Part shown: one piece after another, positions 1,884-20,366 of the stretch | Layout of the letters: the number at the start of each line of letters is the position of its first letter | Position numbering within the stretch: the first letter of the stretch is position 1 | From: Candidatus Liptonbacteria bacterium RIFCSPLOWO2_01_FULL_56_20 | GTDB lineage: Bacteria > Patescibacteriota > Minisyncoccia > UBA6257 > 2-01-FULL-56-20 | Length of the DNA: 54,420 nt | Direction: 5' to 3' | Assembly (NCBI GenBank): GCA_001818655.1 | Contig: MHLC01000026.1 | Location: 1-54,420, forward strand | Notes under the pieces: generated by a model | The model's input: only the letters and a program-made list of their open reading frames with translations | Told to the model about the DNA's origin: nothing | Database searches by the model: none | Program-made: the position numbers and the translations under genes

Positions 1884-3422
1884 TCAGAGCCCGGTCGTCG
1901 TGAACGTTTGTTCGCTTGAAGTCGCGACGTTACCCGACGCGTCTCTTGATTCAGCCGCGAAGTAGTAGGTGGTCGTGGCGGTGAGTCCCGTAAGCAAGAG
2001 CGAGTGGTCCGTGACGAGCGTCACATTCTCCATGGAGAGCGTGGAGGTCGCCGTAAGTACGAGCGGCGTCACGGTCGAGTAGTAGACCTTGGTCGTCCCT
2101 GGCTCGTTCGTGGTCCAGTTTACCGTCGCATTCATCGAGCTCGGCGTTGCGGTGAGCGCAGAGATGACCGGCGGCGTCGTGTCAGGAAGCGCGAGCGTGA
2201 CCACGATCTGATCGGATGACGTTGCGGTATTTCCTGATGCGTCCTGTGACTGAATCCGGAAGTGGTACGTGGTCGCCGGCAGGAGTCCTAAGATCATCTG
2301 TCCGTGGCTTGCGACGAGCACCGTATCAAGCGTGGTGCTTGAGCCGTACGCCGTGGTCGTGCCGTAGAACATCCGCGAATTTGCCGGTTCGTTCGTGACC
2401 CAGCTCACTGCGACCGACGAAGTGCTGGGCGATGCCGCGATGCCCGAGATGACTGGTGCCGTGACATCTGCGACCGCGAGCGTGACAAAGGTCTGGTCAG
2501 ACGAGGTGGCAAGATTGCCGGCTGCGTCGCGCGACTGAACCTGGAAGTGGTACGTGGTCACCGGCGAGAGGCCGCTTAGGGTCTGCGCGTGTCCCGTGAC
2601 GAGCGTGCCGTCAAGCACCGTGCTTGAGCCGTACGCCGTGGTCGCGCCGTAGAAGACCTGCGAACTCGCCGCTTCATTGGTAGCCCATGTTATCGCTGTC
2701 GAGGATACGCTTGGCGATGCCGCGACGCCGGAGATGGCAGGCGGAATGACGTCGGTGGTAGAAGTGGGAGAAGGCGGCAGTTTCTTTATGATGCCGGGCG
2801 GCAGGATCTGACAGACGGGGACGAGCGGTTTGTCGTGCTTCCGCAGCCACCCCGGCGCGATGAGATGTCCTGGAGGGACGATCGCGCAGAGCCGGCCAGC
2901 GGTCCCCGACGCATTTATAATGATAGCCATTTTTTTGGCATCGCTATCGTCGTCATCGTCATCATCGCGCGAAGATTCGATGCCGAGCGGATGCTCCTCA
3001 AAATACTCGTTCAGCTTCTTCAGCGTTTTCGGGCCGACGAATCCTACCTGTTCGATCCCGAACTTTTTCTGGAATCGCTTCACCGCGTTTGCGGTGAGCT
3101 GGCCGAAGTAGCCCGTGACGAGCCCCTCGGGATAGATCTCCGCGTCTGCGGCAAGGAGCGCCTGGAGCGTGCTTACCTCATCGCCCCGCATGCCCTCCCG
3201 GAGCATGGTAAGGAGCTGGGAGACCGTTTGCTGTTTCTGTATCTCGAGCTGCTGGATCTGCGCCTGGAGCGTTTTGATCTGCTGCAAGAGGGCCGCTATC
3301 TGCGCCTGAAGCGCGGCCACGCTTGAACTCGAGGTTTGCGCGAGCGCCGTTCCTCCCGGCGCGAGGTTAAGGAGGAGGACCGCCGCCAAGCCTAATGCAA
3401 TGCGTTTCATGTGTGTATGCAT
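1884..3422 (-). CDS. secreted surface protein: signal peptide, Q-rich coiled coil, peptidoglycan-binding domain, poly-Asp linker, three FN3-like repeats
   Basis: Signal peptide MKRIALGLAAVLLLNLAPGGTALAQ. PG_binding_1-like segment LQALLAADAEIYPEGLVTGYFGQLTANAVKRFQKKFG. D7 tract at aa 153-159. Three ~95-aa repeats (aa 224-318, 319-413, 414-512) share the pattern ...ISG.AASPS..S..V.W.TNE...S...YG.T.AYGS......H...L.GL...T.YHF...S.DA.GN.ATSSDQ. Confidence 0.8.
   Translation of the reverse strand: MHTHMKRIALGLAAVLLLNLAPGGTALAQTSSSSVAALQAQIAALLQQIKTLQAQIQQLEIQKQQTVSQLLTMLREGMRGDEVSTLQALLAADAEIYPEGLVTGYFGQLTANAVKRFQKKFGIEQVGFVGPKTLKKLNEYFEEHPLGIESSRDDDDDDDSDAKKMAIIINASGTAGRLCAIVPPGHLIAPGWLRKHDKPLVPVCQILPPGIIKKLPPSPTSTTDVIPPAISGVAASPSVSSTAITWATNEAASSQVFYGATTAYGSSTVLDGTLVTGHAQTLSGLSPVTTYHFQVQSRDAAGNLATSSDQTFVTLAVADVTAPVISGIAASPSTSSVAVSWVTNEPANSRMFYGTTTAYGSSTTLDTVLVASHGQMILGLLPATTYHFRIQSQDASGNTATSSDQIVVTLALPDTTPPVISALTATPSSMNATVNWTTNEPGTTKVYYSTVTPLVLTATSTLSMENVTLVTDHSLLLTGLTATTTYYFAAESRDASGNVATSSEQTFTTTGL
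1887..2753 (-). repeat. three tandem ~285-nt coding repeats (FN3-like modules)
   Basis: Repeat boundaries were derived from the protein repeats within CDS 1884-3422. The repeats are divergent at DNA level. Confidence 0.7.
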
Positions 3423-3620
3423 GATTTTTTTATGTTTTTTCGACTTTTCGACCGTTCTAAATACTCTAATACAAACGAAGCAAACAAGGAAATGTTACAT
3501 ATTTGCGTATGTGCGGGATTTTCATAAAGCGATCCGCCCGGTTCATATATGGAGAGCCGGGCGGCGAAGGGCAAAACGTGTGCTGCCCATTGCATTGCAA
3601 CGGGCAGCGTTGTGCGCGGT

Positions 3621-4105: not shown

Positions 4106-4418
4106 GGGGATGATCAGCTTCGATAAAGACAGGTCACGGACTGGCGAGCCGAGCGCTGACTCGTAAAACCGGCACCACGCATAACTGCTAACCAAAAAGT
4201 TGCAGCTCCCGCATTCGCTTACGCGTAACGCGGGGATCGCCTGACCCCTTGTCTCTTGGGGTCAGACACGGTCTTATACAAGGGGACTAAGTTCCGCCGG
4301 ATGATCCTGCGGCGGGATCGAAAACCAAGGATCAATTCGCCTGACTTCGGTTAGACTACGCTCGTAGAAGGTTCGCTGATACTGTTTTTAGACGGCGGCT
4401 CACTACCGCCCATCTCCA
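4106..4418 (+). ncRNA. ssrA: tmRNA (SsrA), about 313 nt, CCA not encoded
   Basis: The 5' end GGGGATGATCAGCTTCGATAAAGACAGG resembles the tmRNA tRNA-like 5' end. The 3' end is AGAC-GGCGG-CTCACTA-CCGCC-CATCTCC-A. The acceptor GGGGATG/CATCTCC carries the G3:U70 alanine identity pair. The P2 helix is AAAGACAG/CTGTTTTT. Tag ORF at 4187-4225 is GCT AAC CAA AAA GTT GCA GCT CCC GCA TTC GCT TAC GCG, with TAA at 4226-4228, giving ANQKVAAPAFAYA. Confidence 0.8.
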
Positions 4419-4604
4419 CTCGACTCGATTCATTACATTCCGCTCGCTCGCGGCGAGCCGCTTAGAAAATCTTTCCCGCCGCAAGGCGGGATTTAGATCG
4501 TGAAGCGCTCCGATCGCGGTATCGGAACTGCATTCTCTTGGGCCTCGCGAAGGACGCGGGCGAGCGATCAAAGGGCCCGCGCGATATGGTAGAATGATCT
4601 TATA

Positions 4605-7611: not shown

Positions 7612-8442
7612 CTATTGGAGGTTCCTTACAAAACTGATCGGATCTACGGACACGCCGTTGATCTTTATCGATAAGTGGAGATGTGGCGTCTCGGCGTAGC
7701 CCGTATTTCCCACGGTGCCGACGAGAGAGCCCTTCTTCAACGCGGCGCCTTCCTTGACCCTGATCGTGTCGAGGTGGATATAGAAAGAGAATATGCCTTG
7801 TCCGTGGTCCACGATGACCAAGTTGCCGTAGACCGCATCAACATATGCTTTACGAACCAAGCCCGCGTTTATCGCGCCCACAGCCGCGCCTTTTTTCGCG
7901 GTGAAATCCGTTCCCATGTGGCGTATCTGGGTCTCGCCGGTTTGCCGTATCTCGCCGAACACGCTTCCCACGCGCCGGTTGTCCGCGAGCGCGAGTCCGA
8001 ACTGGCTTGAGAAGAAAACATTCTCAGCTTTTTTCCCGAATATCTCATCCAGGATCACTTTTTCCGTTTGGAGCTTGTTCACCAAACCGGTAGGCGTGAG
8101 CCCAAGTTTTTCCGGAATACCCAGCACTACAAGCGGGAATTTTTTGGCGCGCACCGCGACAGTTTGCTCTTGCACGGTGCCGTCCGCGAAGTCCACGCGC
8201 AGCACATAGGCACCAGGCGGTTTTGTCGCGGAGACGCCGAACACCGCGCGGTACGCGCCCGCGTACGGGAAAACAGAGATCGCCGCGCCGTCGAACGTCG
8301 CAGATCGCGGGTTTTTAGAAAAAGAAACGACCACGGCGTCGCCCTGAAACAGCGTCTTGGGAGAGAGCGCGAGCGGCGTCTCTGCTCGCGCAGCGATAGG
8401 CAAGAGTATGACGATAAAACAGGAAAGGATTATTCTGTTCAT
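7612..8442 (-). CDS. M23 family (LytM-like) metallopeptidase, secreted
   Basis: Signal or anchor sequence, then HMGTDF (HxxxD) and PHLHLSIKINGVSVDP (HxH) motifs. Confidence 0.85.
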   Translation of the reverse strand: MNRIILSCFIVILLPIAARAETPLALSPKTLFQGDAVVVSFSKNPRSATFDGAAISVFPYAGAYRAVFGVSATKPPGAYVLRVDFADGTVQEQTVAVRAKKFPLVVLGIPEKLGLTPTGLVNKLQTEKVILDEIFGKKAENVFFSSQFGLALADNRRVGSVFGEIRQTGETQIRHMGTDFTAKKGAAVGAINAGLVRKAYVDAVYGNLVIVDHGQGIFSFYIHLDTIRVKEGAALKKGSLVGTVGNTGYAETPHLHLSIKINGVSVDPISFVRNLQ

Positions 8443-8933
8443 GATTTTTCCCGCGCGGTTCGCATCTCGCGCTCGGCCGCGCGTTTCTTGAGGACCGCGC
8501 GCTTGTCGGATTTTTTCCTGGACTTACCAAGCCCGAGCTCGATCTTTACGAAGCCGCGTTTTATATACGCGCGAAGCGGCACAAATGTTAGCCCTTTTTC
8601 GCGGACGCGGCCGGTTATGCCCTTTATTTCCTCGTGCCGGAGAAGAAGGCGGCGCGTGCGGCCGGAGTCATAATCCTTCGGCGCGTTCTTGGGCTGATAC
8701 GCAGGGATCTGCGCGTTCAAAAGCCAGACCTCGTTGTTTCGTACGACCGCGTAGCTGCCGCTCAAATTGATATGGCCGGCTTTCGCGCTTTTCACTTCTT
8801 GGCCGGTGAGCTCGATGCCGGCTTCGTAGGTTTCAATGATGTCGTAGTCGAATCGCGCCCGCCTGTTCTCGGCGAGGCAGGCCCGCCTGTTCTCGGCGAG
8901 GAATGCGCGGCGGTTTCGGACGGGTGCGTTCAT
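8439..8933 (-). CDS. smpB: SsrA-binding protein SmpB
   Basis: ENRRARFDYDIIETYEAGIELTGQEVKS...SYAVV...EVWLLN..I.PY matches the SmpB core. The N-terminus carries an in-frame 24-nt tandem duplication. Confidence 0.9.
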   Translation of the reverse strand: MNAPVRNRRAFLAENRRACLAENRRARFDYDIIETYEAGIELTGQEVKSAKAGHINLSGSYAVVRNNEVWLLNAQIPAYQPKNAPKDYDSGRTRRLLLRHEEIKGITGRVREKGLTFVPLRAYIKRGFVKIELGLGKSRKKSDKRAVLKKRAAEREMRTAREKS

Positions 8934-9014: not shown

Positions 9015-10613
9015 ATGCTTCAGACAAGGATAAGAATTATTGTGAGGAATGCTGTTCCCGCGAACATTGAATTCGACGTGCTCGTGCCGGAGAAAAGCGC
9101 GTTCGGCCACTATGCGACCAACGTTGCGTTGCGAATGGCGAAGCACGAGCGTAAGGATCCGATCAAGCTCGGCCATGAGCTCGCGACAAAAATCCGCGAG
9201 CGTGCGCCGCAGGGGTTTTTTGCGAGGGTCGAGGTTGCGCCGCCCGGATTCATCAATTTTTGGCTTTCGCCGCACGCGTTTGCCTTGGTCGTGGGCGAGA
9301 TCGTGAAGCAGAAATCCCGCTACGGGTCGTCCCGGCTGGGGAAAGGAAAAAAAACGCAGGTGGAATACGTTTCCGCGAACCCGACCGGCCCCCTCACGCT
9401 CGCGAACGGCAGGGGCGGGTTTTTGGGAGACGCGATCGCGAACGCGCTCAAGTTTGCGGGCTACACGGTCGAGCGCGAATACTACGTGAACGACACGGGC
9501 GGCCAGATAGAAACGTTAGGCAGGTCAATCCTGGCGTTTGCGGGCTATGTCCCCGAAGAAGACCATTTCTATAAAGGCGCATACCTCAAGGATTGGGAGA
9601 AGAAGCATCGCGCCGTAGCAAAGCGTTACGCGAAAGACCCGCTGCGGTTAGGCCAGCGCGCCGCGCGTGATTTCTTGGGCGCGATCAAGTCCGTGCTCGC
9701 CAAGGAAGCGCGCATCCGCTTTGACCGGTTTACTTCGGAAGAGGGGCACATCCACAAGAAAGGGTTCGTCAAAAAAGCGCTCGCGCTTTTTGAGCGGAAA
9801 AAACTGGCGTACGAGAAAGAAGGCGCGGTGTGGCTCCGGACCACCGCATTCGGAGACGATAAGGATCGTGTGCTCGTAACGCGCGAAGGGAGTCCGACAT
9901 ACCTCCTTGCGGACTCCGGGCACTACTTAGAGACCAAAACGCGCGGTTTCCACGGAAAGATCAATATTCTGGGGCCGGATCATTACGGGTACGTGAAGCG
10001 CATTCAGGCCGCAGCAGCGATCGTAGGTCTTGATAACTCCGAAGTGATTATCACGCAGGCCGTGCGGCTCGTGCGAAACGGGAAAGAGGCGAAGATGTCC
10101 AAGCGCAAAGGCGAGTTCGCGACGTTTAAAGAGCTTATCCGCGATGTCGGCTCTGATGCCGCGCGATTCTTTTTCCTCATGATCGCGCCCGAGACGCATA
10201 TGGATTTTGACCTCGCGCTCGCCAAAGAGCACTCCATGAAAAATCCGGTCTATTACGCGCAGTACGCGGCAGTGCGCGCCCGCGCGATCCTGAAAAAACT
10301 AGGGAAGCAGCCGGTCCTATCAAATGAGAAGCTCGCCGCGCTCCTTGTAACCGAGGACGACGCTCGCCTTATGGCGATGCTTGCGCGATTTCCCGAAGTG
10401 CTGGAGGAAGCGACGCGCACCCGGCGCATCCATGAGCTCACGCGCTATGCGTCAGACCTCGCCGCCACGTTCCATAATTTCTACGAGAAAGAGCGGGTGA
10501 TCGAAGAAGAAAAAGACGTGCGCGCCGCGCGCGGCACGCTTGTTTCTGCCGCTTCCATCGTATTTACGAACCTCTTCGGCATTTTGGGCATTGCAACGCC
10601 GAAGAAAATGTAG
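9015..10613 (+). CDS. argS: arginine--tRNA ligase
   Basis: Internal ATG at 9015 (MLQTRIRIIVRNAV...). SANPTGPLTLANGRG (HIGH-region equivalent), KMSKRKG, and a C-terminal DALR-type anticodon-binding region. The 659-aa ORF start is antisense to smpB and was rejected. Confidence 0.9.
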   Translation: MLQTRIRIIVRNAVPANIEFDVLVPEKSAFGHYATNVALRMAKHERKDPIKLGHELATKIRERAPQGFFARVEVAPPGFINFWLSPHAFALVVGEIVKQKSRYGSSRLGKGKKTQVEYVSANPTGPLTLANGRGGFLGDAIANALKFAGYTVEREYYVNDTGGQIETLGRSILAFAGYVPEEDHFYKGAYLKDWEKKHRAVAKRYAKDPLRLGQRAARDFLGAIKSVLAKEARIRFDRFTSEEGHIHKKGFVKKALALFERKKLAYEKEGAVWLRTTAFGDDKDRVLVTREGSPTYLLADSGHYLETKTRGFHGKINILGPDHYGYVKRIQAAAAIVGLDNSEVIITQAVRLVRNGKEAKMSKRKGEFATFKELIRDVGSDAARFFFLMIAPETHMDFDLALAKEHSMKNPVYYAQYAAVRARAILKKLGKQPVLSNEKLAALLVTEDDARLMAMLARFPEVLEEATRTRRIHELTRYASDLAATFHNFYEKERVIEEEKDVRAARGTLVSAASIVFTNLFGILGIATPKKM

Positions 10614-10676
10614 GCGTCGCGCGAATGGGAGCAAAAAGCCGTTTGTTATGCGTTTTGCCGGGCAAACAGCGACCCC

Positions 10677-10705
10677 TTGCGTTTCTTAATGATATATGCT
10701 ATAAT
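10677..10705 (+). promoter_or_regulatory. sigma70-like promoter upstream of the DGR target gene
   Basis: TTGCGT (10677-10682), 17 nt, TATAAT (10700-10705). It leaves a ~134-nt 5' UTR containing an imperfect 13-bp hairpin (10734-10746 / 10762-10774). Confidence 0.4.
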
Positions 10706-10845
10706 GTAAAGCGTACCTTGATAATGCTTGGCTGCGCGCTAGAAGGCTTGATATTATTGAGCCCTCTGGCGCGCAACCAATGCAATCCGTCTACCTAAAA
10801 AGCTTCGTATAGTGCGAGGTAAGGGGTAGGCAAAGGAGTGAGGTC

Positions 10846-11436
10846 ATGGAAAAGATGAGCGTAGGACAGGCTCGGGAGCTACACAGCCGCTTGGTGCGGT
10901 GCGCCCCCGACGACTTGGACACCGATCTCGCGCAGGCATTGAACGACGCCTCGCCCGAGATCATCCGCGAGTTCCTCGCTGGGCTGAAGACCCTTCAGGT
11001 CTTTTGCTCTGTCCCCGAGGACGGCGAGGAGTTCGAGCTCTCGCTCGACGGCAACGCCGTAGACCCGCTGGCGATGGTCCGTAAGGACGGCTACAGCGGG
11101 GAGTGGCAGTTTAACGGGCCGAAAGTGGAGGGAGTTCAGACCCGCCGCTTCCAGCTCGTCCGTTTGGGATACTGCCCTAACCTCGACGAGGCCAAGGCGA
11201 AAGCCCAAACCCGGGGTTACCGGCTCGCCGAGGGTGAGTGGCGGGAGGCTTTCCGCAAGAGGTTTCTTCGCCCCGCCGTTGGCGACCTTATCGCCTTCGG
11301 TGGTTCCGGGTGGACGTACCCGAATGGCGACCGCAACTTCCCGTATCTCGACGAGAGCGACGGAGCGTGGGACTCGGACTTCGACTGGGTTGGCAGCGGG
11401 TTCGACGAGGACTGGCGGTGGCTCGTGAGCAAGTAG
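10846..11436 (+). CDS. DGR target (variable) protein, 196 aa, C-terminal CLec/DUF1566-like variable region
   Basis: AAGGAG SD upstream. The C-terminal 44 aa (GSGWTYPNGDRNFPYLDESDGAWDSDFDWVGSGFDEDWRWLVSK) are encoded by the VR. No signal peptide or TM is visible. Confidence 0.85.
   Translation: MEKMSVGQARELHSRLVRCAPDDLDTDLAQALNDASPEIIREFLAGLKTLQVFCSVPEDGEEFELSLDGNAVDPLAMVRKDGYSGEWQFNGPKVEGVQTRRFQLVRLGYCPNLDEAKAKAQTRGYRLAEGEWREAFRKRFLRPAVGDLIAFGGSGWTYPNGDRNFPYLDESDGAWDSDFDWVGSGFDEDWRWLVSK
11302..11433 (+). repeat. DGR variable region (VR)
   Basis: Aligns at an offset of 529 nt with 11831-11962. In a hand alignment, 13 mismatches were found, 11 of them at positions that are A in the downstream copy. 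Confidence 0.85.
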
Positions 11437-11488
11437 CGGGACTTGGAGCCTCGGGCGCTTGGCGTTCCATTGGCCCCTCGGTTCCTTC

Positions 11489-11520
11489 GGCCTCGCACGG
11501 TCAATATGACGTGCGAGGCC
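11489..11520 (+). terminator. GC-rich hairpin downstream of VR (terminator and/or DGR target-recognition stem-loop)
   Basis: GGCCTCGCAC-ggtcaatatgac-GTGCGAGGCC, a 10-bp perfect stem followed by TTTCGTTTT. Confidence 0.5.
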
Positions 11521-11549
11521 TTTCGTTTTACAGGTAAGAGGCGACAGCC

Positions 11550-11578
11550 TTGTGTTTCAATACTAGTGGCGATAGAAT
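11550..11578 (+). promoter_or_regulatory. candidate promoter for the TR RNA
   Basis: TTGTGT (11550-11555), 17 nt, TAGAAT (11573-11578), about 250 nt upstream of the TR. Confidence 0.35.
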
Positions 11579-11830
11579 AATTTACGGAGAGTAGATTAAT
11601 AGAAGCCCGCGGCTACGGTTTCGGGCGATCAAAATCCGAGATTTGTCGTATGCGGAGTAGCATCGGGTACGCCTTGTGCTAGCGTCATCCTCAATCTCCA
11701 AAAAACAAAAGCTACTTGGTACCAGGCGCCAGCGAGTTTTTAGACTCCAAATACGATACAATCCGGAGACCGGCCCGCCAACATAGTGCGGCACTCAACG
11801 GACGGTGGCGCAGATGGCGTCTGGTATATT

Positions 11831-11962
11831 GGTTCCGAGTGGACGAACCCGAATGGCAACCGCAACTTCCCGTATCTCGACGAGAACGACGGAGCGTGGA
11901 ACTCGAACTTCAACTGGGCTGACAACGATTTCGACGAGAACTGGCGGTGGCTCGTGAGCAAC
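11831..11962 (+). repeat. DGR template region (TR)
   Basis: The adenine-rich copy of the VR, with AAC codons at most variable positions (GAAC, GCAAC, GAGAAC, TGGAACTCGAACTTCAAC, GACAACGAT, GAGAAC). Not a plausible CDS in its own right. Confidence 0.85.
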
Positions 11963-12366
11963 TACTTTTGTTCCCCGCCTCTGGCGGGGTTTATTATTGT
12001 ATTGACCTGTTTCTGCCAGCCGCCGAGCATTCTGCCAATTTCAGAGAGGTTTTCTGATAGGGCTATATATTTTTTATTGTCCAAAGCCTTGATCTCCCAG
12101 GCGATTTGCAGAAAGAATTTCAAGGAGTCCAGCTTGGCACTGGCCTCAAAAATGACCGGCAATTTTCTCTCCCCGGGTAAGCGACTCGCTGTAAAAACAA
12201 GTTCAATCATTTCCGTGAACAGGCCGTCAATTTTCCCGCCCAGCGTGTAGCGCGAGGTCTTGGGAAAATGCGGCAGGAATTCGTGCCATAGTTTGTAGGC
12301 GGCAATCAGGCGCTGGATGATGGATAAATTGTTCCTGCGGGGGGGGCTTACTGGTAAAGAATTCAT
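11962..12366 (-). CDS. avd: DGR accessory variability determinant (Avd; four-helix-bundle protein)
   Basis: MNSLPV...SIIQRLIAAYKLWHEFLPHFPKTSRYTLGGKIDGLFTEMIELVFTA...LDSLKFFLQIAWEIKAL...LSEIGRMLGGWQKQ shows a typical Avd / 23S-IVS four-helix-bundle pattern. Start chosen at the internal ATG at 12366-12364. Confidence 0.85.
   Translation of the reverse strand: MNSLPVSPPRRNNLSIIQRLIAAYKLWHEFLPHFPKTSRYTLGGKIDGLFTEMIELVFTASRLPGERKLPVIFEASAKLDSLKFFLQIAWEIKALDNKKYIALSENLSEIGRMLGGWQKQVNTIINPARGGEQK
11973..11999 (+). terminator. terminator-like hairpin immediately 3' of TR (inside the avd C-terminal codons on the other strand)
   Basis: CCCCGCC-tct-GGCGGGG (11973-11989) followed by TTTATTATTG. Confidence 0.4.
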
Positions 12367-13342
12367 GAAAAAATTTGATTGCAACTTTGAGCGGATGGTA
12401 AGCGTGGAAAATCTACTGGACGCTTGGCAGGAATTCGTCCGCGGCAAGCGGGCGAAGCCGGACGTGCAGGAATTCTCTCTGCGGCTTATGGATAACATTT
12501 TACAGCTCCATCATGAACTTGTGAACCGAACCTACCGGCACGGCGGCTACCAGTCGTTCAACATCTCCGACCCGAAGCCGCGAAACATCCATAAAGCAAA
12601 CGTCCGCGACCGACTCCTGCACCACGCCGTCCATCGCATACTCTACCCCCTCTTTGACCGGACATTTATCGCCGATTCCTATTCCTGCCGTTTAAGCAAA
12701 GGCACACACAAAGCCATTAACCGCTTTAGGGCGTTCGCCTACAAGGCGAGCCGCAACCACACCAGGACCTGCTGGGTTTTGCAATGCGATGTCAAAAAGT
12801 TTTTCGCCAGCGTTGATCACAGGGTCTCGCTGGATATCCTCAAACGCTACATATCGGATACTGACATTATCCGGCTCTTGCGAGAAGTTGTCGGCAGTTT
12901 TCACTCCGGCATTCCGGGCAAGGGTTTGCCGCTCGGCAATCTCACTTCCCAGCTTCTGGCCAATGTATATATGAATGAGCTTGATCAGTTCGTGAAGCAC
13001 AAACTCAAAATAAGGCATTACATCCGCTATGCGGACGATTTTACGATTTTATCCGAGAACAAAACCTTACTGGAGAGTTTAACCCCGCAGATAGACGGTT
13101 TCCTCCGTCAAAACCTTAAACTGGAATTGCATCCGGACAAGATTTGCATGAAAACCATCGCTTCCGGCGTGGATTTCCTGGGCTGGGTGCATTTCCTCGG
13201 CCACCGAGTTTTGCGGACGGCAACGAGGAGGCGGATGCTGAAACAGATTGCGGAACATCCTGCGCCGGAGACACTGATTTCGTACGCTGGCCTTCTGCGG
13301 CACGGGAATGCGTACAAGCTCCTCGCGTCTTTAGGATTTTAG
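12365..13342 (+). CDS. DGR reverse transcriptase
   Basis: VENLLDAW, DPKPRNIHKANVRDRLLHHAV, CDVKKFFASVDH, LPLGNLTSQLLANVYMNELD (the DGR-specific LGxxxSQ motif), YIRYADDFTIL (YxDD), GVDFLGW. Start ATG at 12365 (alternatives 12317 or 12395). Confidence 0.9.
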   Translation: MKKFDCNFERMVSVENLLDAWQEFVRGKRAKPDVQEFSLRLMDNILQLHHELVNRTYRHGGYQSFNISDPKPRNIHKANVRDRLLHHAVHRILYPLFDRTFIADSYSCRLSKGTHKAINRFRAFAYKASRNHTRTCWVLQCDVKKFFASVDHRVSLDILKRYISDTDIIRLLREVVGSFHSGIPGKGLPLGNLTSQLLANVYMNELDQFVKHKLKIRHYIRYADDFTILSENKTLLESLTPQIDGFLRQNLKLELHPDKICMKTIASGVDFLGWVHFLGHRVLRTATRRRMLKQIAEHPAPETLISYAGLLRHGNAYKLLASLGF

Positions 13343-13401
13343 TTTGCGGCTACGAAGATTCTCCGCTATTATTCAGTCATTACGAAGAGGATAATCCAAT
13401 A

Positions 13402-16400
13402 ATGTTTTTTGGAGAAAATTTCAAACTGCCCGAAGTAGAGGAAAAGGTCTTGAAGTTCTGGAAAACAAACCGGATCTTCGAGAAAAGCCTGGCGCAGACC
13501 AGAAACGGAAAACCCTTCACCTTCTATGACGGGCCGCCTTTTGCGACCGGCCTGCCGCACTATGGCCATATCCTCGCCTCGACCATCAAGGATGTGATAC
13601 CGCGCTATCAGACGATGAGGGGGCGGTTCGTCCGTCGCCGCTGGGGCTGGGATTGTCACGGCCTGCCCGTCGAGGAGATCGTGGAGCGGAAGCTTGGCAT
13701 CTCCGGCAAGAAGCAGATCGAGAAAATTGGCATTCGGAGATTCAACGAAACGTGCCGGAACACGGTGCTTGAGTTCGTGAACGAGTGGAAAAAGACGGTC
13801 GAGCGGATCGCCCGCTGGGTGGAGTTTGATAACGCATACAAGACGATGGATCCCGACTATATGGAATCGGTCTGGTGGGCGTTCAAAGAGATGCATGAGA
13901 AGAACCTGATCTACGAGGGACGGAAAGTGCTTATGTATTGCTCGCGGTGCGAGACGCCGGTTTCGAACTTCGAGGTGGCGATGGACAACTCCTACAAGGA
14001 CGTGACAGAGGAGGCGGTAACCGTAAAGTTCAAGGTGAGGCCGGGTCAAGGCGTCGGCCGCTCGAAGCTTCCCAAAGATACATATCTTCTGGCTTGGACA
14101 ACGACGCCGTGGACTCTGCCGGGGAACGTTGCGTTGGCAGTAGGGGAAAAAATCAGCTACACCGCGCTTCGTACGCGGGGATCGAAGGAGTTATATGTCG
14201 TGGCGAGCGCAGCCGTGCCGAAACTTTTTGCGAAACAGGAGATAGAGGTCGTGCACCAGGACATCGCTGGGAAAGACCTGGTGGGCTTGGCCTACGAGCC
14301 GCTCTTTGACGTACCAGCGGTGCGGTCGGCGAAGGCGTTCAGGATTTATTCCGCCGATTTTGTTGCGATGGACGAAGGAACGGGCATCGTGCACACAGCC
14401 GTGGTCTATGGCGAAGAGGACTATGTACTAGGACAGAGGGAGGGCCTCCCGGTCGTGCCGCTCCTTGACGAAAAGGGAAAGTTTAATGATAGGGCGCCGA
14501 AGTTCCTGTGCAACACATACTTTAAGGACGCGGACCCATTGATCGTTGCCAATCTCGAGAGGCGCAAGCTTCTCTTCCGTAAGGAAAAACAGACGCATTC
14601 CTATCCGCACTGCTGGCGGTGCGGTACGCCGCTCTTCTACAACGCCATTCCCGCCTGGTTTGTGAATATTCAGAAAATGAAAAAGCAGCTCATTGCCTCG
14701 AACGCGAGAGAGATGCACTGGTACCCCGCGCACTTAAAGCATGGCCGTTATGAGAACAGCGTGAGAGAGGCGCCAGATTGGAATATTTCCCGCAACCGGT
14801 ATTGGGGGAATCCGATTCCGGCGTGGAAGTGTGAGCGGTGCGGTCGGACAGAGGTCATCGGGAGCTTGGACGAGCTTTCGGAACGCACCGGTGGGGCAAA
14901 AAACCATTACTGGGTCCTCCGGCACGGATTTGCGGAGTCCAACCTCGCGCGCACCATTGATTCCGGTCAGAGGCAATTCCACCTTACCCCTACGGGAATT
15001 ATGGAGGTAGAGACGGGCATCGCTAAGTTTAAGAAGGAACTTGCCCGTCACGGAGAAAAGATTGACCTTATCGTTTCCTCAGACATCCTCCGTGCTAAGG
15101 AGAGCGAGGCGGTTGCGGCGAAGGCGCTCGGCGTCAAAAAAATCAGTTTTGACAAGCGGCTGGAGGAAATTCGTTTGGGGAAGGGACTTTCGGGGTGCCA
15201 TGACGCGCAGTACCACAAACAATATCCGACCTATGAATCAAAGTTCGAAGAGCGCCCTAAGGGAGGCGAATCCCTAAGAGATCTTCGTGCGCGGGCATGG
15301 GGGCTTCTTGGGGGGCTTGAGGAGAGGCATCGCGGCAAGAACATATTGCTCGTGAGCCATGAGTATCCGATCTGGATGCTCTTTCATACAGGCGAGGGAT
15401 GGAGCGAAGAGCGGGCGATCACGGAAAAGAAAGGGCGGGGGGCGGATTTTATTGAAACCGGGGAGGTGCGTGAGTTGCGTTTCAGGGCCGTGCCACGCAG
15501 CGAAACCGGCGAGGTGGATCTCCACCGGCCTTATATCGATGAGATTACTCTGCGATGCAGGAAATGCGGCGGGAAAGCAAAGCGAATCGCAGAGATTTTT
15601 GATTCGTGGACCGAAGCCGGTTCGATGCCCTTCGCGGAGTACCACTACCCTTTCGAGAATAAAAAGACGTTCGAGAATAGATTCCCCGCACAATTCGTGG
15701 CCGAGTACATCGCGCAGACCCGGGCGTGGTTCTATGTGATGCATGTGGTTGGCCTCGCCCTCTTCAAAAGGGCGCCTTTCGAGCACGTGGTCACGACTGG
15801 TACCATTCTTGCGGAGGACGGCTCGAAGATGTCGAAGTCAAAAGAAAATTACCCTGACCCGTGGAACGTCATCGGAAAGTACGGCGTGGATGCACTCCGT
15901 TTCTATCTGATGAGTTCAGTCGTGATGCAGGCCGACAATTTGAACTTCAACGTACGGGATCTCGAAACGGCGTACCGTAGAGTTATCGTCACTCTGTGGA
16001 ACGTGTACAACTATTTTGCCATCTATGCGGGGGCGGCGGAGCGGAGCCGCGCCGGCCGCGTGAAGAAAACAGTCTTGGATAAGTGGATTGACGGCCGCAG
16101 AGAAGAATTAGTTCGGGCGGTAACGAGCCACATGGAGTCTTATGATACCGTGCGCGCCACGAGAGCGATCGCGGAGTATATTGACGATCTTTCGCGATGG
16201 TATCTGCGGCGCAGCCGAAAGCGAACCGACGCGGCGTTTTTTATCACGCTCCGTGATGCTCTTTTCACCGCAAGTCGAGTGATTGCTCCATTCATGCCAT
16301 ATCTTGCCGAGGTGCTCTATGGGAATATTGTGGGGCATACCACAGGAAGCAAGCATCCTGTGTCGGTGCATCTCGTTTCTTGGCCGCGGGCGGACAAGCG

Positions 16401-16920
16401 ACTGATTAACAAGAGATTGTTCAGTAAAATGGTTGAGGTGCGGCGGCTTGCAAGCGTTGCGCTCGCAAAACGCGCAGAGGCCGGTATTAAAGTGCGTCAG
16501 CCGCTGTCCGTGCTCAAGATCAAAACTCAAAAGACGGGAGTGAAGCTGGATAAGGAACTGCTCGGGATTTTAAAAGAAGAAGTGAACGTGAAAGAGGTCG
16601 TGTTTGATAAAAAACTCAAAGTGGAGGTTGAACTTGACACGAACATCACGCCGGAGCTGCGTGAAGAAGGGTTGCTCCGCGAGCTCGTCCGTATGGTCCA
16701 GGACCTGCGTCAGAAAGCTGGGCTAAGGCCCAGGGACAAGATCGTGCTCCTTGCGGAATTGCCTAAGGAAATGAGAGCCGCGGCAGTAAAACAAGAGGGT
16801 GCGCTCAAACGCGAAGTGAACGCGAGAGAGGTTCAATATAAGAAGTCGGATAAGTTCATCGCAGAGGCGCAGACAAAAACCGACGAAGGAGAGGCGTGGC
16901 TCGGGGTAAGAAAGAGTTAG
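13402..16920 (+). CDS. ileS: isoleucine--tRNA ligase (type 2) with an inserted histidine-phosphatase-like domain
   Basis: Start ATG at 13402 (MFFGENFKLPEVEEKVLKFW). PPFATGLPHYGHIL (HIGH), WTTTPWTLPGN (editing domain), KMSKSKEN. 1172 aa, about 100-130 aa longer than I recall for type-2 IleRS. The extra segment at 14899-15516 carries RHG...SH motifs. Confidence 0.9.
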   Translation: MFFGENFKLPEVEEKVLKFWKTNRIFEKSLAQTRNGKPFTFYDGPPFATGLPHYGHILASTIKDVIPRYQTMRGRFVRRRWGWDCHGLPVEEIVERKLGISGKKQIEKIGIRRFNETCRNTVLEFVNEWKKTVERIARWVEFDNAYKTMDPDYMESVWWAFKEMHEKNLIYEGRKVLMYCSRCETPVSNFEVAMDNSYKDVTEEAVTVKFKVRPGQGVGRSKLPKDTYLLAWTTTPWTLPGNVALAVGEKISYTALRTRGSKELYVVASAAVPKLFAKQEIEVVHQDIAGKDLVGLAYEPLFDVPAVRSAKAFRIYSADFVAMDEGTGIVHTAVVYGEEDYVLGQREGLPVVPLLDEKGKFNDRAPKFLCNTYFKDADPLIVANLERRKLLFRKEKQTHSYPHCWRCGTPLFYNAIPAWFVNIQKMKKQLIASNAREMHWYPAHLKHGRYENSVREAPDWNISRNRYWGNPIPAWKCERCGRTEVIGSLDELSERTGGAKNHYWVLRHGFAESNLARTIDSGQRQFHLTPTGIMEVETGIAKFKKELARHGEKIDLIVSSDILRAKESEAVAAKALGVKKISFDKRLEEIRLGKGLSGCHDAQYHKQYPTYESKFEERPKGGESLRDLRARAWGLLGGLEERHRGKNILLVSHEYPIWMLFHTGEGWSEERAITEKKGRGADFIETGEVRELRFRAVPRSETGEVDLHRPYIDEITLRCRKCGGKAKRIAEIFDSWTEAGSMPFAEYHYPFENKKTFENRFPAQFVAEYIAQTRAWFYVMHVVGLALFKRAPFEHVVTTGTILAEDGSKMSKSKENYPDPWNVIGKYGVDALRFYLMSSVVMQADNLNFNVRDLETAYRRVIVTLWNVYNYFAIYAGAAERSRAGRVKKTVLDKWIDGRREELVRAVTSHMESYDTVRATRAIAEYIDDLSRWYLRRSRKRTDAAFFITLRDALFTASRVIAPFMPYLAEVLYGNIVGHTTGSKHPVSVHLVSWPRADKRLINKRLFSKMVEVRRLASVALAKRAEAGIKVRQPLSVLKIKTQKTGVKLDKELLGILKEEVNVKEVVFDKKLKVEVELDTNITPELREEGLLRELVRMVQDLRQKAGLRPRDKIVLLAELPKEMRAAAVKQEGALKREVNAREVQYKKSDKFIAEAQTKTDEGEAWLGVRKS

Positions 16921-20279: not shown

Positions 20280-20366
20280 TGGTGCCCTCCAGAGGATTTG
20301 AACCTCTACGGGATTACTCCCACAAGCTCCTGAAGCTTGCGCGTCTGCCAGTTCCGCCAGGAGGGC
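20280..20366 (-). tRNA. tRNA-Leu (anticodon CAG), CCA encoded
   Basis: The reverse complement folds as GCCCTCC / D-arm / CAAGC-TTCAGGA-GCTTG / long variable arm TGGGAGTAATCCCGT / AGAGG-TTCAAAT-CCTCT / GGAGGGC-A-CCA. 87 nt. Confidence 0.85.

Follow-up and report, generated by a model that had tools for sequence, protein, structure and literature searches.

A very probably active chromosomal diversity-generating retroelement in Candidatus Liptonbacteria with its TR inside a predicted structured RNA

Introduction

Between argS and ileS of Candidatus Liptonbacteria RIFCSPLOWO2_01_FULL_56_20 lies a group of genes that a first-pass annotation took for a diversity-generating retroelement (DGR), raising the questions of whether this is a genuine and working element and of what occupies the space between its VR and its TR. 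The class of cassette is already known, CPR DGRs with the B3 layout having been catalogued since 2017, the year in which Paul et al. reportedly published a survey of CPR/DPANN DGRs in Nat Microbiol. Architecture B3 is defined by the order TR-(avd)-RT (Wu et al. 2018, Nucleic Acids Res 46:11, PMC5758913), and since this published architecture is typical of CPR bacteria the cassette itself is ordinary. Here we describe the locus within the 54,420-nt stretch of DNA that was analysed (the window), together with related loci and independent assemblies.

Results

Layout of the cassette

The target CDS, avd and reverse transcriptase (RT) gene of the first-pass annotation were borne out by the list of open reading frames and their translations. 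The elements of the cassette are as follows.

10846..11436, + strand: target gene (variable protein), ORF of 196 aa
11301..11433, + strand: VR (variable repeat), from repeat search and alignment; mutable part 11309-11410, IMH 11411-11432, stop codon TAG at 11434-11436
11830..11962, + strand: TR (template repeat), from repeat search and alignment; 34 adenines, 11 in-frame AAY codons
11962..12366, - strand: avd (accessory variability determinant), from ORF and profile matches, 134 aa
12339..12346, + strand: poly-G tract (poly-C, avd codons 7-10), 18 nt upstream of the RT ATG
12365..13342, + strand: DGR RT, from ORF and profile and structure matches, 325 aa (YADD; LGNLTSQ)

Positions 10846-13342 constitute a complete DGR (target with VR, TR, avd and RT), and the locus is confirmed as a genuine DGR cassette, a reading supported by RT, Avd, TR/VR and haplotype evidence: a DGR-clade RT, mismatches at TR adenines, a VR at the 3' end of a gene, an Avd, whose place HRDC, MSL or CH1 may take in other DGRs, and an IMH/IMH* pair are all present. 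The element order is target-VR > TR > <avd RT>, with avd convergent with TR, divergent from RT and overlapping the RT start by 2 nt at its own start codon (alternative RT starts lie at 12317 and 12395). The view of the DGR as an island between argS and ileS also held, these genes being 2 nt apart in a more distant Liptonbacteria genome; in the two closest relatives another insert occupies the interval. In its core order, TR-(avd)-RT, and in the opposite orientation of avd the locus agrees with B3. Published B3 CPR DGRs (PMC5758913) have TR, avd and RT in this order and on these strands and a single upstream target with C-terminal VR; no difference in gene layout was seen, and the host here is likewise a groundwater Parcubacteria MAG. 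In nearly all of approximately 65 related loci with upstream sequence, avd diverges from RT and its 3' end is followed by an A-biased TR; the minus-strand avd is standard CPR layout and no peculiarity of the present locus.

The RT had been described as DGR type from its YADD and LGNLTSQ motifs, and this is upheld. Its translation carries YADD and LPLGNLTSQ, in keeping with the YxDD and motif-4 [I/L/V]GxxxSQ signatures of the DGR clade. Its top PDB match, 8ub7_A (E=1e-41), outranks any group II intron or retron RT by 22 orders of magnitude, and it is 30% identical to BPP-1 Brt over 322 aa (E=3e-49), with equal length and a common [I/L]GxLTSQ motif (IGxLTSQ in BPP-1, LGNLTSQ here). A PHROG RT family was matched at 1e-104, and the protein is 45-77% identical to thousands of Patescibacteria RTs; no DGR-RT model was among the matches of an NCBIfam profile search. 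The Avd-like product of 11962-12366 matched Pfam bAvd at 59.5 bits (cut-off 40; 5e-16), PHROG 'Avd protein of DGR' at 1e-20 and NCBIfam DivGenRetAVD at 72 bits, just under the 80-bit cut-off.

TR, VR and the target protein

An independent repeat search paired 11301-11435 with 11830-11964 at 90% identity, ungapped and with a spacing of 529. The computed alignment has 14 mismatches in 133 nt, 13 of them inside 11302-11432, exactly reproducing the earlier count of 13 with 11 at A. Classified base by base, 11 of the 14 (ten A>G and one A>T) coincide with TR adenines, and VR has A at none of the 14, an enrichment with hypergeometric P = 1.6e-5 given 34 A in TR, and these classes show that 11831-11961 and 11302-11432 had been assigned as TR and VR in the right direction. 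Three mismatches fall elsewhere: C11919>T and T11929>G of TR, and the edge base 11962. VR forms the last 44 codons of CDS 10846-11436, and its end is invariant and IMH-like as previously noted: the 22 nt at 11411-11432 equal 11940-11961 and are identical in TR and six of seven VR haplotypes, with exceptions in L008 (one C>A) and L004 (without the VR 3' end), and the four adenines inside them are substituted in no haplotype. By its sequence this block fits what is expected of an IMH/IMH*.

The target, identical to OGY98281.1/OGZ00823.1, comprises an N-terminal three-helix segment and a C-terminal domain of ~140 aa belonging to an unannotated family with 371 remote relatives (representatives). 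It is small and apparently cytoplasmic, no signal peptide or hydrophobic segment being visible by eye. The family gave no Pfam, NCBIfam, PHROG or PDB sequence match, and a 64-sequence target profile matched neither FGE-sulfatase/DUF1566 nor any other Pfam model or PDB chain. When the AF2 model (pLDDT 93) was searched with Foldseek, top matches were almost all C-type lectin-like domains (CTLDs) at weak scores (E 0.1-0.8, best 0.12; probability up to 0.82; TM <=0.48), and the modelled fold weakly resembles a C-type lectin. As in Mtd, TvpA and the archaeal AvpA class, the VR lies at the extreme C-terminus. Set against C-type-lectin DGR proteins, the target has the scaffold GGSxW...W.S.F.W...WRWLV, with invariant aromatics and glycines between variable AAC-derived positions, and none of its top 50 PDB fold matches is described as a DGR variable protein.

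A homopolymeric tract in avd

The poly-G tract is the only G/C run of at least 8 in the 54 kb. It is G8 here, with avd intact, and G9 in six other assemblies of the same strain, where avd is frameshifted/truncated (10 assemblies cover avd); 34 of 71 relatives retain an uninterrupted G7-G11 tract, about half of them in frame. Judged from sequence, the G8/G9 tract may be a phase switch, and the element may be off in many cells because avd is frameshifted (G9) in six assemblies. The chances are about even that G8/G9 is instead a homopolymer sequencing or assembly artefact and that the tract is conserved for other reasons, as proline codons or as an RT 5'-UTR/Shine-Dalgarno-like element. Every assembly is short-read and long G-runs are error-prone, and in some relatives the tract lies an estimated 7-10 nt from the RT ATG, compatible with a ribosome-binding role; however, G8 and G9 were each found with every kind of assembler in otherwise identical sequence, and pure G7-G11 is retained even in AT-rich genomes, where proline would be expected to be encoded by CCA/CCT.

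A structured RNA domain precedes TR

The ~390-nt gap between VR and TR is not empty. Within this 393-nt spacer lie a promoter-like box and a structured RNA domain of ~240 nt that shows strong covariation and has five to seven covarying helices, and the features of the region are listed below.

11420..11450, + strand: weak interrupted hairpin (GGCTC..CAAGT-AGCGGG-ACTTG-GAGCC) from DNA folding, spanning the VR end and stop codon
11489..11528, + strand: predicted intrinsic terminator of the target gene, GGCCTCGCACG...CGTGCGAGGCC then TTTCGTTTT, from fold prediction
11550..11578, + strand: putative TR RNA promoter, -35 TTGTGT (11550-55), 17-nt spacer, -10 TAGAAT (11573-78)
11585..11638, + strand: helix P1, upper stem 11605-11614/11617-11626 with cUACGg tetraloop
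11650..11688, + strand: helix P2, 11650-11667/11672-11688, compensatory changes in all 12 pairs
11704..11711, + strand: J strand AACAAAAG, part of the conserved A-rich junction AAAAAAnGAAGAUAC, pairing with the F strand
11719..11827, + strand: P3 domain, closed by the 12-bp long-range helix P3 (11719-11730/11816-11827)
11965..11972, + strand: F strand CTTTTGTT, complementary to J, just 3' of TR
11973..11998, + strand: hairpin CCCCGCC-TCT-GGCGGGG and U-run (TTTATTATT), overlapping the last avd codons on the other strand

In alignment A3 the putative promoter coincides with a box conserved in related loci, TTTTTGnTATAAT, and its predicted start is at ~11585. The P1 upper stem is 95% paired with 7 of 9 pairs covarying, whereas the base helices (11585-88/11635-38 and 11594-96/11628-30), which flank a GAGUA/AAAA internal loop, are weaker at 74-79% paired. 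P3 encloses P3a (11734-37/11744-47), P3b (11761-65/11799-11803), which has a 33-nt insertion in the present genome, and the conserved single strands AAAUAnnAUACAG and CAGUGGnAnnGAUGG; the domain ends 2-3 nt before TR. Pairing of J with F scored -9.7 kcal/mol for native and -5.9 kcal/mol for cross-locus combinations (0 of 2000 permutations), with many compensatory changes.

The domain is widely conserved. With the window spacer alone, nhmmer matched 25 other loci (E down to 7e-16), and RNAalifold predicted 42 pairs, 38 of them with compensatory changes; alignment cells were 95% paired compared with 40-47% in slid controls, and none of 500 shuffles reached the observed values. Covariance model R1 matched the window at 11703-11828 (81.5 bits, E=2e-17) and gave one match per DGR in 66 loci, 41 of which lie outside its training set, always on the TR strand directly before TR. 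No family in Rfam 15 corresponded to the 5' domain, and in full-text literature and Rfam 15 no description was found of a structured RNA 5' of TR, of J:F pairing, of a terminator right after TR or of a poly-G tract in avd.

From its sequence, the hairpin and U-run at 11973-11998 are proposed to form the 3' end of the TR RNA, and the hairpin is possibly an analogue of the Avd-binding stem-loop. A comparable hairpin and T-run lie 8-20 nt past TR in most of 64 related loci, with differing stem sequences. TR would then be transcribed as a stand-alone ~415-nt non-coding RNA (~11585-11998), with conceivable read-through past the predicted terminator into anti-avd and RT. At the other end of the region, comparison of VR and TR flanks showed that the 11420-11450 hairpin is unable to form at TR; it could conceivably be a target-recognition hairpin.

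Comparison with the BPP-1 DGR RNA

The BPP-1 DGR RNA runs in the order primer strand, 2 nt, Stop strand, stem-loop, A80/A81, Thumb Ring and bRT-binding stem-loop (Handa et al., bioRxiv 10.1101/2023.10.23.563531, cryo-EM RNP). Rfam represents its Sp RNA as RF03022 (Phage_DGR, formerly RT-10 motif), which we located in BPP-1 at 2750-2882, between TR (2887-3020) and brt. The BPP-1 element (mtd-avd-TR-brt) and the present one have in common the RT family, Avd, adenine-specific TR>VR differences, an IMH and a TR of AAC codons. They differ in that all BPP-1 genes lie on one strand, whereas here avd is inverted and fills the TR-RT interval; that Sp lies 3' of TR and directly upstream of brt, whereas here the structured domain is 5' of TR; that the RNA here comes with a promoter-like box of its own and seems to stop ~35 nt past TR; and that the target here is a small cellular protein rather than a phage tail fibre.

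The topology of the two RNAs is nevertheless parallel. Both have a duplex beside the TR 3' end and an adjoining duplex with a segment just upstream of TR, after which come a stem-loop, adenosines and another stem-loop, and they share the short motifs cUACGg (as a hairpin), a GAGUA/GAAA-type loop, AAUACA and GUGG. RF03022 scored 20.4 bits on the window (E=0.31; 11490-11646, partly on the target's terminator) with a gathering threshold of 50 bits, and gave no match in 16 relatives at that threshold and none in 7 at E<=10; R1 gave no match on BPP-1. Membership of the 5' domain in RF03022 was rejected on its score below 50 bits and its position 5' of TR. Because the covariance models fail to cross-detect Sp and the 5' domain, permutation is argued from topology and short shared motifs only, and we put at roughly one in two the chance that this RNA is the BPP-1 DGR RNA in circularly permuted form, with cis-priming.

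Under such permutation, RT-Avd would bind the structured 5' domain, and the J:F duplex would set the TR 3' edge in the active site, like the Sp:TR template:primer duplex of BPP-1, with J as analogue of the primer strand. A nucleotide of the conserved GAUAC immediately 3' of J (11712-11718) would prime cDNA synthesis in cis, and synthesis would copy TR with misincorporation opposite adenines and halt at helix P3, which would correspond to the 'cPRT Stop' duplex. This cDNA would then replace VR 11309-11410, anchored by the 22-nt IMH, and such retrohoming could change as many as ~17 codons of the putatively lectin-like C-terminal domain, giving ~10^17 proteins without ever creating a stop codon.

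It is possible, although we consider it unlikely, that the 5' domain is a real RNA structure serving as a separate regulatory leader, acting in TR RNA stability, processing, transcription or signal sensing, with priming elements elsewhere, for example in a read-through RNA antisense to avd. The lack of covariance-model-level similarity to RF03022 would agree with this, as would P1 and P2, which have no clear BPP-1 counterpart at such a position, and the fact that termination at 11990-98 is a prediction. Against it, the succession of J, 7 nt, P3 strand, short stem-loop, A-run, single strand and stem-loop mirrors the BPP-1 order, the hairpin and U-run past TR recur clade-wide, and the region antisense to avd is under coding constraint.

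The permuted arrangement also recalls retron ncRNA (msr-msd), in which structured RNA 5' of the template, long-range pairing to the template 3' end and internal 2'-OH priming are combined. The likeness is one of topology alone: the RT clades differ, and the DGR product integrates into the target gene whereas that of retrons accumulates as msDNA.

VR haplotypes and activity of the element

Polymorphism confined to A-templated sites, for which the first-pass annotation had suggested a check, was looked for between assemblies and found: at least seven VR haplotypes of one natural population, from independent assemblies and drawn from consensus sequences that are possibly chimeric, differ in DNA almost solely at partners of TR adenines. 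The target 90% cluster likewise contains 7 variants, all identical at aa 1-154. Over 10600-13420 nearly all differences between assemblies fall in VR at TR-A partners, for example six of six in L001 and 14 of 16 in L002, the other two in the latter being the window's non-A changes reverted to the TR base. TR is identical in every assembly holding it, except for an extra hybrid copy in L013. Across haplotypes 19 of 34 TR adenines are substituted compared with 2 internal non-A sites, and single VR sites carry several different bases. With 30 adenines 5' of the IMH, the variable surface is larger than the ~12 hypervariable residues first estimated. Among distinct substitution events A>G (17) outnumbers A>T (7) and A>C (2), a bias that selection or another misincorporation spectrum may explain. 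With TR and the remainder of the gene invariant and nearly all differences between VR haplotypes at TR-adenine sites, the element is considered active, and these population-level sequences fit ongoing mutagenic retrohoming.

It is highly improbable that the locus is a decayed or silent relic whose VR/TR differences are old and whose between-assembly differences are strain polymorphism or assembly noise. The frameshifted (G9) avd in 6 of 10 assemblies covering the gene would suit a relic, and the loss of the VR 3' end including the IMH in L004 (one MAG) and the 529-bp duplication in L013 could signal decay or misassembly, but variation over 2.8 kb is almost confined to VR at TR-adenine partners, with multiple bases per site, whereas neutral polymorphism would spread across the locus and all four bases, and the RT, TR and RNA domain are intact and conserved. 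It is extremely improbable that the RT is of group II intron or retron origin and that the repeat has nothing to do with it: group_II_RT_mat is its best NCBIfam model and relatives are publicly annotated as 'retron-type' or 'group II intron' RTs, but the 140 bits obtained are far under the 300-bit cut-off of that model, the PDB and BPP-1 comparisons favour a DGR RT by >20 orders of magnitude, and the protein (325 aa) is without maturase/X or endonuclease (En) domain and adjoins Avd. Assignment to these classes was rejected on models far below cut-offs, and no intron RNA or retron family (msr-msd RNA) was matched in Rfam at the locus.

Discussion

The locus is very probably a chromosomal, active DGR of CPR-typical B3 architecture with its TR inside its own structured RNA. 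What goes beyond the earlier finding of a known cassette is the structured RNA 5' of TR, the topology of J:F pairing and terminator, and the poly-G tract in avd. We tentatively propose, at a little under an even chance, that CPR-type B3 DGRs employ a circularly permuted stand-alone ~415-nt RNA with its own promoter and terminator, in which primer strand, 'cPRT Stop' duplex and RT-binding stem-loops have moved from the 3' side of TR, their place in BPP-1, to its 5' side, together with an avd poly-G/C slipped-strand switch that makes hypermutation phase-variable.

Public assemblies provide direct evidence of target diversification by the present element in a natural aquifer population, and the most abundant class of CPR DGR is found to have a well-supported structured RNA absent from Rfam. 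If the reading of its topology is true, the RT-Avd machinery would tolerate a permuted RNA, and a cis-priming and stop mechanism known from one phage could be tested in a lineage far removed from it; the locus would also offer a self-contained, compact template RNA gene that is potentially useful for engineering. The work also defines at least 371 small unannotated variable proteins as a family with a high-confidence model, and the conserved avd homopolymer suggests that cells may gate hypermutation stochastically.

The retroelement and its repeats

Open reading frames and an independent repeat search returned the three genes and the repeat pair that the first-pass annotation had described in this region as a diversity-generating retroelement (DGR), with gene features as follows.

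10846-11436, + strand: target CDS, 196 aa
11962-12366, - strand: avd ORF, 134 aa from the ATG at 12366
12365-13342, + strand: reverse transcriptase (RT) ORF, 325 aa, with YADD and LPLGNLTSQ motifs

One long direct repeat was observed, 11301-11435 against 11830-11964, ungapped with 90% identity and a spacing of 529. Per-base classification gave 14 mismatches in 133 nt: the downstream copy has A at 11 of them (10 A>G, 1 A>T), the upstream copy at none. Given 34 A in the downstream copy this corresponds to a hypergeometric P of 1.6e-5, in agreement with the adenine enrichment previously claimed. The location of mismatches at adenines of the downstream copy identifies it as the template repeat (TR, 11830-11962) and the upstream copy as the variable repeat (VR, 11301-11433), which forms the final 44 codons of the target CDS. 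The TR contains 11 in-frame AAY codons, no TR codon is turned into a stop by adenine changes, and the final 22 nt are the same in both repeats (IMH in the VR, 11411-11432, and IMH* in the TR). The avd and RT start codons share 2 nt on opposite strands (CATG, 12364-12367), so each gene must have its promoter within the other; for avd, a sigma-70-like match was present at 12525-12497 (- strand), within the RT coding region.

The RT matched RVT_1 (Pfam), its top NCBIfam model was a group II RT (140 bits, cut-off 300), and a DGR-RT model was not among its NCBIfam hits. The top solved structure was 8ub7_A (328 aa, E=1e-41), with group II and retron RTs next at 1e-19 or worse, and alignment with Brt, the RT of the reference DGR of Bordetella phage BPP-1, gave 30% identity over 322 aa (E=3e-49) at near-identical length, IGSLTSQ of Brt aligning with LGNLTSQ. 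These data indicate an RT of the DGR type rather than of the group II or retron type, as first proposed. More than 8000 relatives had E <1e-30; among those with names, the closest (65-77% identity) were overwhelmingly from Patescibacteria/CPR. The minus-strand protein was likewise borne out as Avd-like by Pfam bAvd (5e-16), the PHROG 'Avd protein of DGR' (1e-20) and NCBIfam DivGenRetAVD (72 bits, cut-off 80), and is weakly similar to BPP-1 Bbp7.

Architecture and genomic setting

Related elements were compared in 80 loci from GTDB genomes with related RTs. In nearly every locus with upstream sequence avd lay immediately upstream of the RT gene on the opposite strand, with an A-biased TR on the RT strand just past the 3' end of avd and, usually 400-550 nt further upstream, the VR. 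This layout is shared with 'Architecture B3, TR-(avd)-RT', reported in 90% of the CPR collection of Wu et al. (PMC5758913); the inverted avd is therefore standard rather than new, and the cassette counts as an ordinary representative of the CPR B3 class already known. Multiple elements or targets were also observed: within 9 kb of locus L039 there are two complete B3 DGRs (TRs at 3468-3565 and 8246-8364), both having a separate RNA domain upstream, and one TR serves several target genes in L076 (three VRs) and in L050/L052 and L078 (two VRs). In a related Patescibacteria locus a LOOT RNA (RF03000, 71.5 bits) lies directly downstream of the DGR RT (L028 5039-5152).

The ArgRS encoded beside the DGR matches its counterpart in Candidatus Liptonbacteria bacterium RIFCSPLOWO2_01_FULL_56_20 at 100% identity, and argS or ileS neighbours the DGR in none of the related loci. 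In a Liptonbacteria genome whose ArgRS is 56% identical the order is smpB<, argS>, ileS> with a 2-nt gap, and in the two closest relatives (63-64% ArgRS identity) argS and ileS are separated by a different two-gene insert. The inserts, at L098 7749-8991 and L099 2322-4081, lie on the minus strand and comprise a PaaX_M-domain gene with one or two unknown genes. The presence of a different insert at the same place marks the junction as a recurrent integration or variable site, and the island noted between argS and ileS is thus lineage-specific cargo in a variable junction. GC content over avd and RT is 0.49-0.53, slightly below the flanks (0.55-0.58). The ileS product (13403-16920, 1172 aa) has a His_Phos_1 (PF00300) domain inserted within its catalytic tRNA-synt_1 domain (precomputed Pfam); the insertion is present in L098 and L099 and absent from a distant Liptonbacteria IleRS (956 aa, L100). 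A tmRNA gene (4106-4421, + strand; Rfam 100.5 bits, ARAGORN silent) and smpB, encoding its partner (8439-8933, - strand), lie a few kb upstream of the DGR, and a tRNA-Leu(CAG) gene is at 20280-20366.

Variation within the population

A word-indexed protein search placed the target in a single 90% cluster of 7 member sequences, identical over residues 1-154 and differing in the VR only. Sixteen contigs encoding target variants, from groundwater metagenomes (Rifle and others), two NCBI MAGs, JGI and Logan, were then compared as DNA over window 10600-13420. Each contig carried 0-3 substitutions outside the VR and up to 16 inside it, at positions whose TR partner is A; the two non-A VR changes of the window (11390, 11400) are the TR base in other haplotypes. 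Seven VR haplotypes were present in total, in which 19/34 TR adenines were substituted at least once and only 2 internal non-A sites varied. The four IMH adenines were never substituted in any haplotype, and the TR was invariant across assemblies. Several contigs stop right after the VR, the usual assembly break at a hypervariable repeat. The polymorphism at TR-adenine sites predicted by the first-pass annotation is thus found at the level of consensus assemblies, and on these the element is very probably an active DGR. The 30 adenines 5' of the IMH allow a repertoire of approximately 10^18 DNA or 10^17 protein variants.

Distinct substitution events numbered 17 A>G, 7 A>T and 2 A>C (haplotypes L001-L016, window 11309-11410). 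This skew to G, which accounts for 10/11 TR-adenine substitutions in the window itself, could stem from an RT bias or from selection for Asp/Gly/Ser. Partial retrohoming, considered because the window, L001 and L008 have 3' halves in common, was dropped since consensus assemblies of mixed populations can be chimeric. Two contigs had altered repeats. L004 (GW2011_GWB1_56_8, GCA_001004965.1, LCSB01000002.1, ~4548) is without the VR 3' end, IMH and stop codon (window 11394-11435), its 214-aa target product reading into downstream sequence, and represents either a dead target or an assembly collapse. L013 (GCA_001818545.1, MHKW01000008.1, 4985-5116), a MAG of the same organism, has an extra 529-bp tandem unit, an added copy of window 11301-11829, in the order VR, spacer, hybrid copy, spacer, TR, the hybrid copy being TR-like in its 5' part and VR-like in its 3' part; this reflects either misassembly at the repeat or genuine TR/VR recombination.

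The target protein

As a single sequence the target had no match in Pfam, NCBIfam, PHROGs or PDB sequences, and the word-indexed search found no relatives beyond its own cluster. Exhaustive phmmer against 1.84 billion representatives identified 371 relatives, 230 of them below 1e-10, of 140-220 aa with the C-terminal ~140 residues in common. A Pfam match was present in 0/64 aligned family members, and the 64-sequence profile found nothing in PDB. The VR scaffold G.S.W..P.G...FP.L...G..W.S.F.W....F...WRWLV consists of non-adenine codons. An AlphaFold2 model built with the family alignment (pLDDT 93.2, pTM 0.79) gave Foldseek matches in PDB and viral models that at the top were almost all C-type lectin-like domains, all weak (best E 0.12, TM <=0.48) and with known DGR variable proteins absent. 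The modelled fold is thus CLec-like, and the target a candidate member of that fold class. No hydrophobic N-terminal segment was seen by eye, suggesting that the protein is probably cytoplasmic. In the related loci tblastn with the window target found nothing (80 loci), and the target HMM gave only four weak matches (L017 at 4e-10; L056, L040, L059) among 72 DGR loci with diverse targets, indicating that targets are swapped freely within the RT clade. The analysis defines an unannotated lectin-like target family that appears undescribed.

A structured RNA 5' of the template repeat

When the window spacer between VR and TR was used alone as an nhmmer query, a matching spacer was observed in 25 other loci (E 7e-16 to 5e-4) with unrelated targets. 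Iterated searches gave one match per locus, on the TR strand only and ending 2-18 nt before the TR. Alignment of 34 spacer sequences revealed a conserved extended -10 box (TTTTTGnTATAAT) followed by helices; the elements in the window, all read on the TR strand, are listed below.

11489-11528: target-gene terminator, followed by 300 nt to the TR
11573-78: promoter-like box TAGAAT, with TTGTGT 17 nt upstream (34-sequence alignment)
11585-88/11635-38 and 11594-96/11628-30: weaker P1 base helices, around a GAGUA/AAAA loop
11605-14/11617-26: P1, with a cUACGg tetraloop
11650-67/11672-88: P2
11704-11: J strand
11719-30/11816-27: P3, a long-range 12-bp helix enclosing P3a and P3b
11734-37/11744-47: P3a
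11761-65/11799-11803: P3b
11965-72: F strand
11973-11998: GC hairpin and U-run, 3' of F

RNAalifold predicted 42 pairs, 38 with compensatory double changes. Paired cells amounted to 95%, against 40-47% in controls with partners slid by 1-3 columns, and double-change cells to 400 against 55-97; the observed values were reached in 0/500 shuffles. A covariance model of the P3 domain (R1) gave 67 matches in 698 kb over 66 loci, 41 of them outside training, exactly one per DGR (two in the two-DGR locus) and always just before the TR, with nothing elsewhere in the 54-kb window and nothing in phage BPP-1. No Rfam 15 family reached threshold in the window spacer or 16 relatives. A small-protein gene was rejected, the spacer having no consistent long open frame and its helix substitutions being compensatory. 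In IMG/VR the pattern GATACTTGGTN{50,80}CAGTGG had >120 matches, the first 80 of which were all R1-negative, indicating chance matches, with no viral instance among those. Comparative sequence evidence strongly supports the VR-TR spacer being a structured RNA gene, the mechanism of which we infer. No description of this RNA was found in the searchable literature, a scope outside which Paul et al. 2017 falls.

Directly 3' of the TR/VR homology the related loci have a common pyrimidine-rich motif, CUCUCUUCAUUUC (F; CTTTTGTT in the window), complementary to a conserved A-rich strand just 5' of P3, AAAAAAnGAAGAUAC (J; AACAAAAG in the window). The two covary, examples of such pairs being AAAATAAAGC/GCTTTATTTT, CCAAAGAAA/TTTCTTTGG, ACAGAAGATA/TATCTTCTGT, AAATGCCA/TGGCATTT and GGATGGAG/CTCCATCC. 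Native J:F duplexes had a mean of -9.7 kcal/mol against -5.9 kcal/mol for cross-locus pairs, a difference equalled in 0/2000 permutations. A GC hairpin and U-run was present 8-20 nt past the TR in most of 64 loci, with differing stem sequences, and the RNA probably ends ~35 nt past the TR. The J:F pairing and P3 would thus form a junction at which the two TR ends come together.

Comparison with the BPP-1 RNA

Positions 2750-2882 of BPP-1, the spacer (Sp) between TR (2887-3020) and brt, are covered by Rfam family RF03022, previously called RT-10 (Weinberg et al. 2017, PMC5737381). By cryo-EM (Handa et al., bioRxiv 10.1101/2023.10.23.563531) a duplex forms between Sp47-56 and TR117-129, with Sp A56 as the primer; two nt on, Sp59-70 pairs with an avd segment just upstream of the TR ('cPRT Stop'), followed by a short UNCG stem-loop, A80/A81, a 'Thumb Ring' that is single-stranded and stem-loops that bind RT and Avd, and one stem-loop lies directly 3' of the TR. 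Similarly, in the window J pairs beside the TR 3' end and, seven nt on, a P3 strand pairs with a segment 2-3 nt upstream of the TR, followed by P3a, an A-run (AAAUA), a conserved single strand and P3b, again with a stem-loop directly 3' of the TR. The window elements precede the TR, whereas those of BPP-1 come after it. From this topology we infer that the window RNA may be a circular permutation of the BPP-1 DGR RNA, a reading held at that level because the covariance models do not cross-detect and the common motifs (cUACGg, a GAGUA-type loop, AAUACA, GUGG) are all short. The resemblance to RF03022 was not borne out, the family scoring below threshold in the window and giving no match in relatives, and R1 finding nothing in BPP-1; the topological analogy alone was kept. 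The survey of other DGRs by Handa et al. reached 40 nt upstream of the TR and 100 nt downstream of it, with Bacillota, Cyanobacteriota and Pseudomonadota illustrated (bioRxiv 10.1101/2023.10.23.563531); at that reach a J strand ~125 nt upstream would be missed.

A conserved poly-G tract in avd

The only G/C run of at least 8 in the 54-kb window is a G8 tract at 12339-12346, which is poly-C on the avd strand (codons 7-10) and sits 18 nt upstream of the RT ATG. Within the population the tract was G8 in 4 assemblies, with avd intact, and G9 in 6, where avd is frameshifted and gene callers give a 66-aa avd fragment; three G9 contigs are otherwise identical to the window. A G7-G11 run was present at the same place in 34/71 related loci, AT-rich genomes included, and about half of these have, upstream of the tract, a start codon whose frame matches that of the Avd domain. 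The corresponding sites are the avd 5' ends of L017-L059, L086 and L092. Homopolymer assembly errors are a live alternative explanation of the length variation within the population, as is a role in RT translation for a tract so placed. The tract, which is conserved, may be a contingency-locus (phase-variable) switch of Avd and hence of mutagenesis. A literature search found no publication that connects DGRs with phase variation at homopolymers. The conserved homopolymer in avd appears undescribed and concerns the whole class, and the template RNA anatomy, which likewise appears undescribed, pertains beyond this single locus to the whole CPR B3 class.
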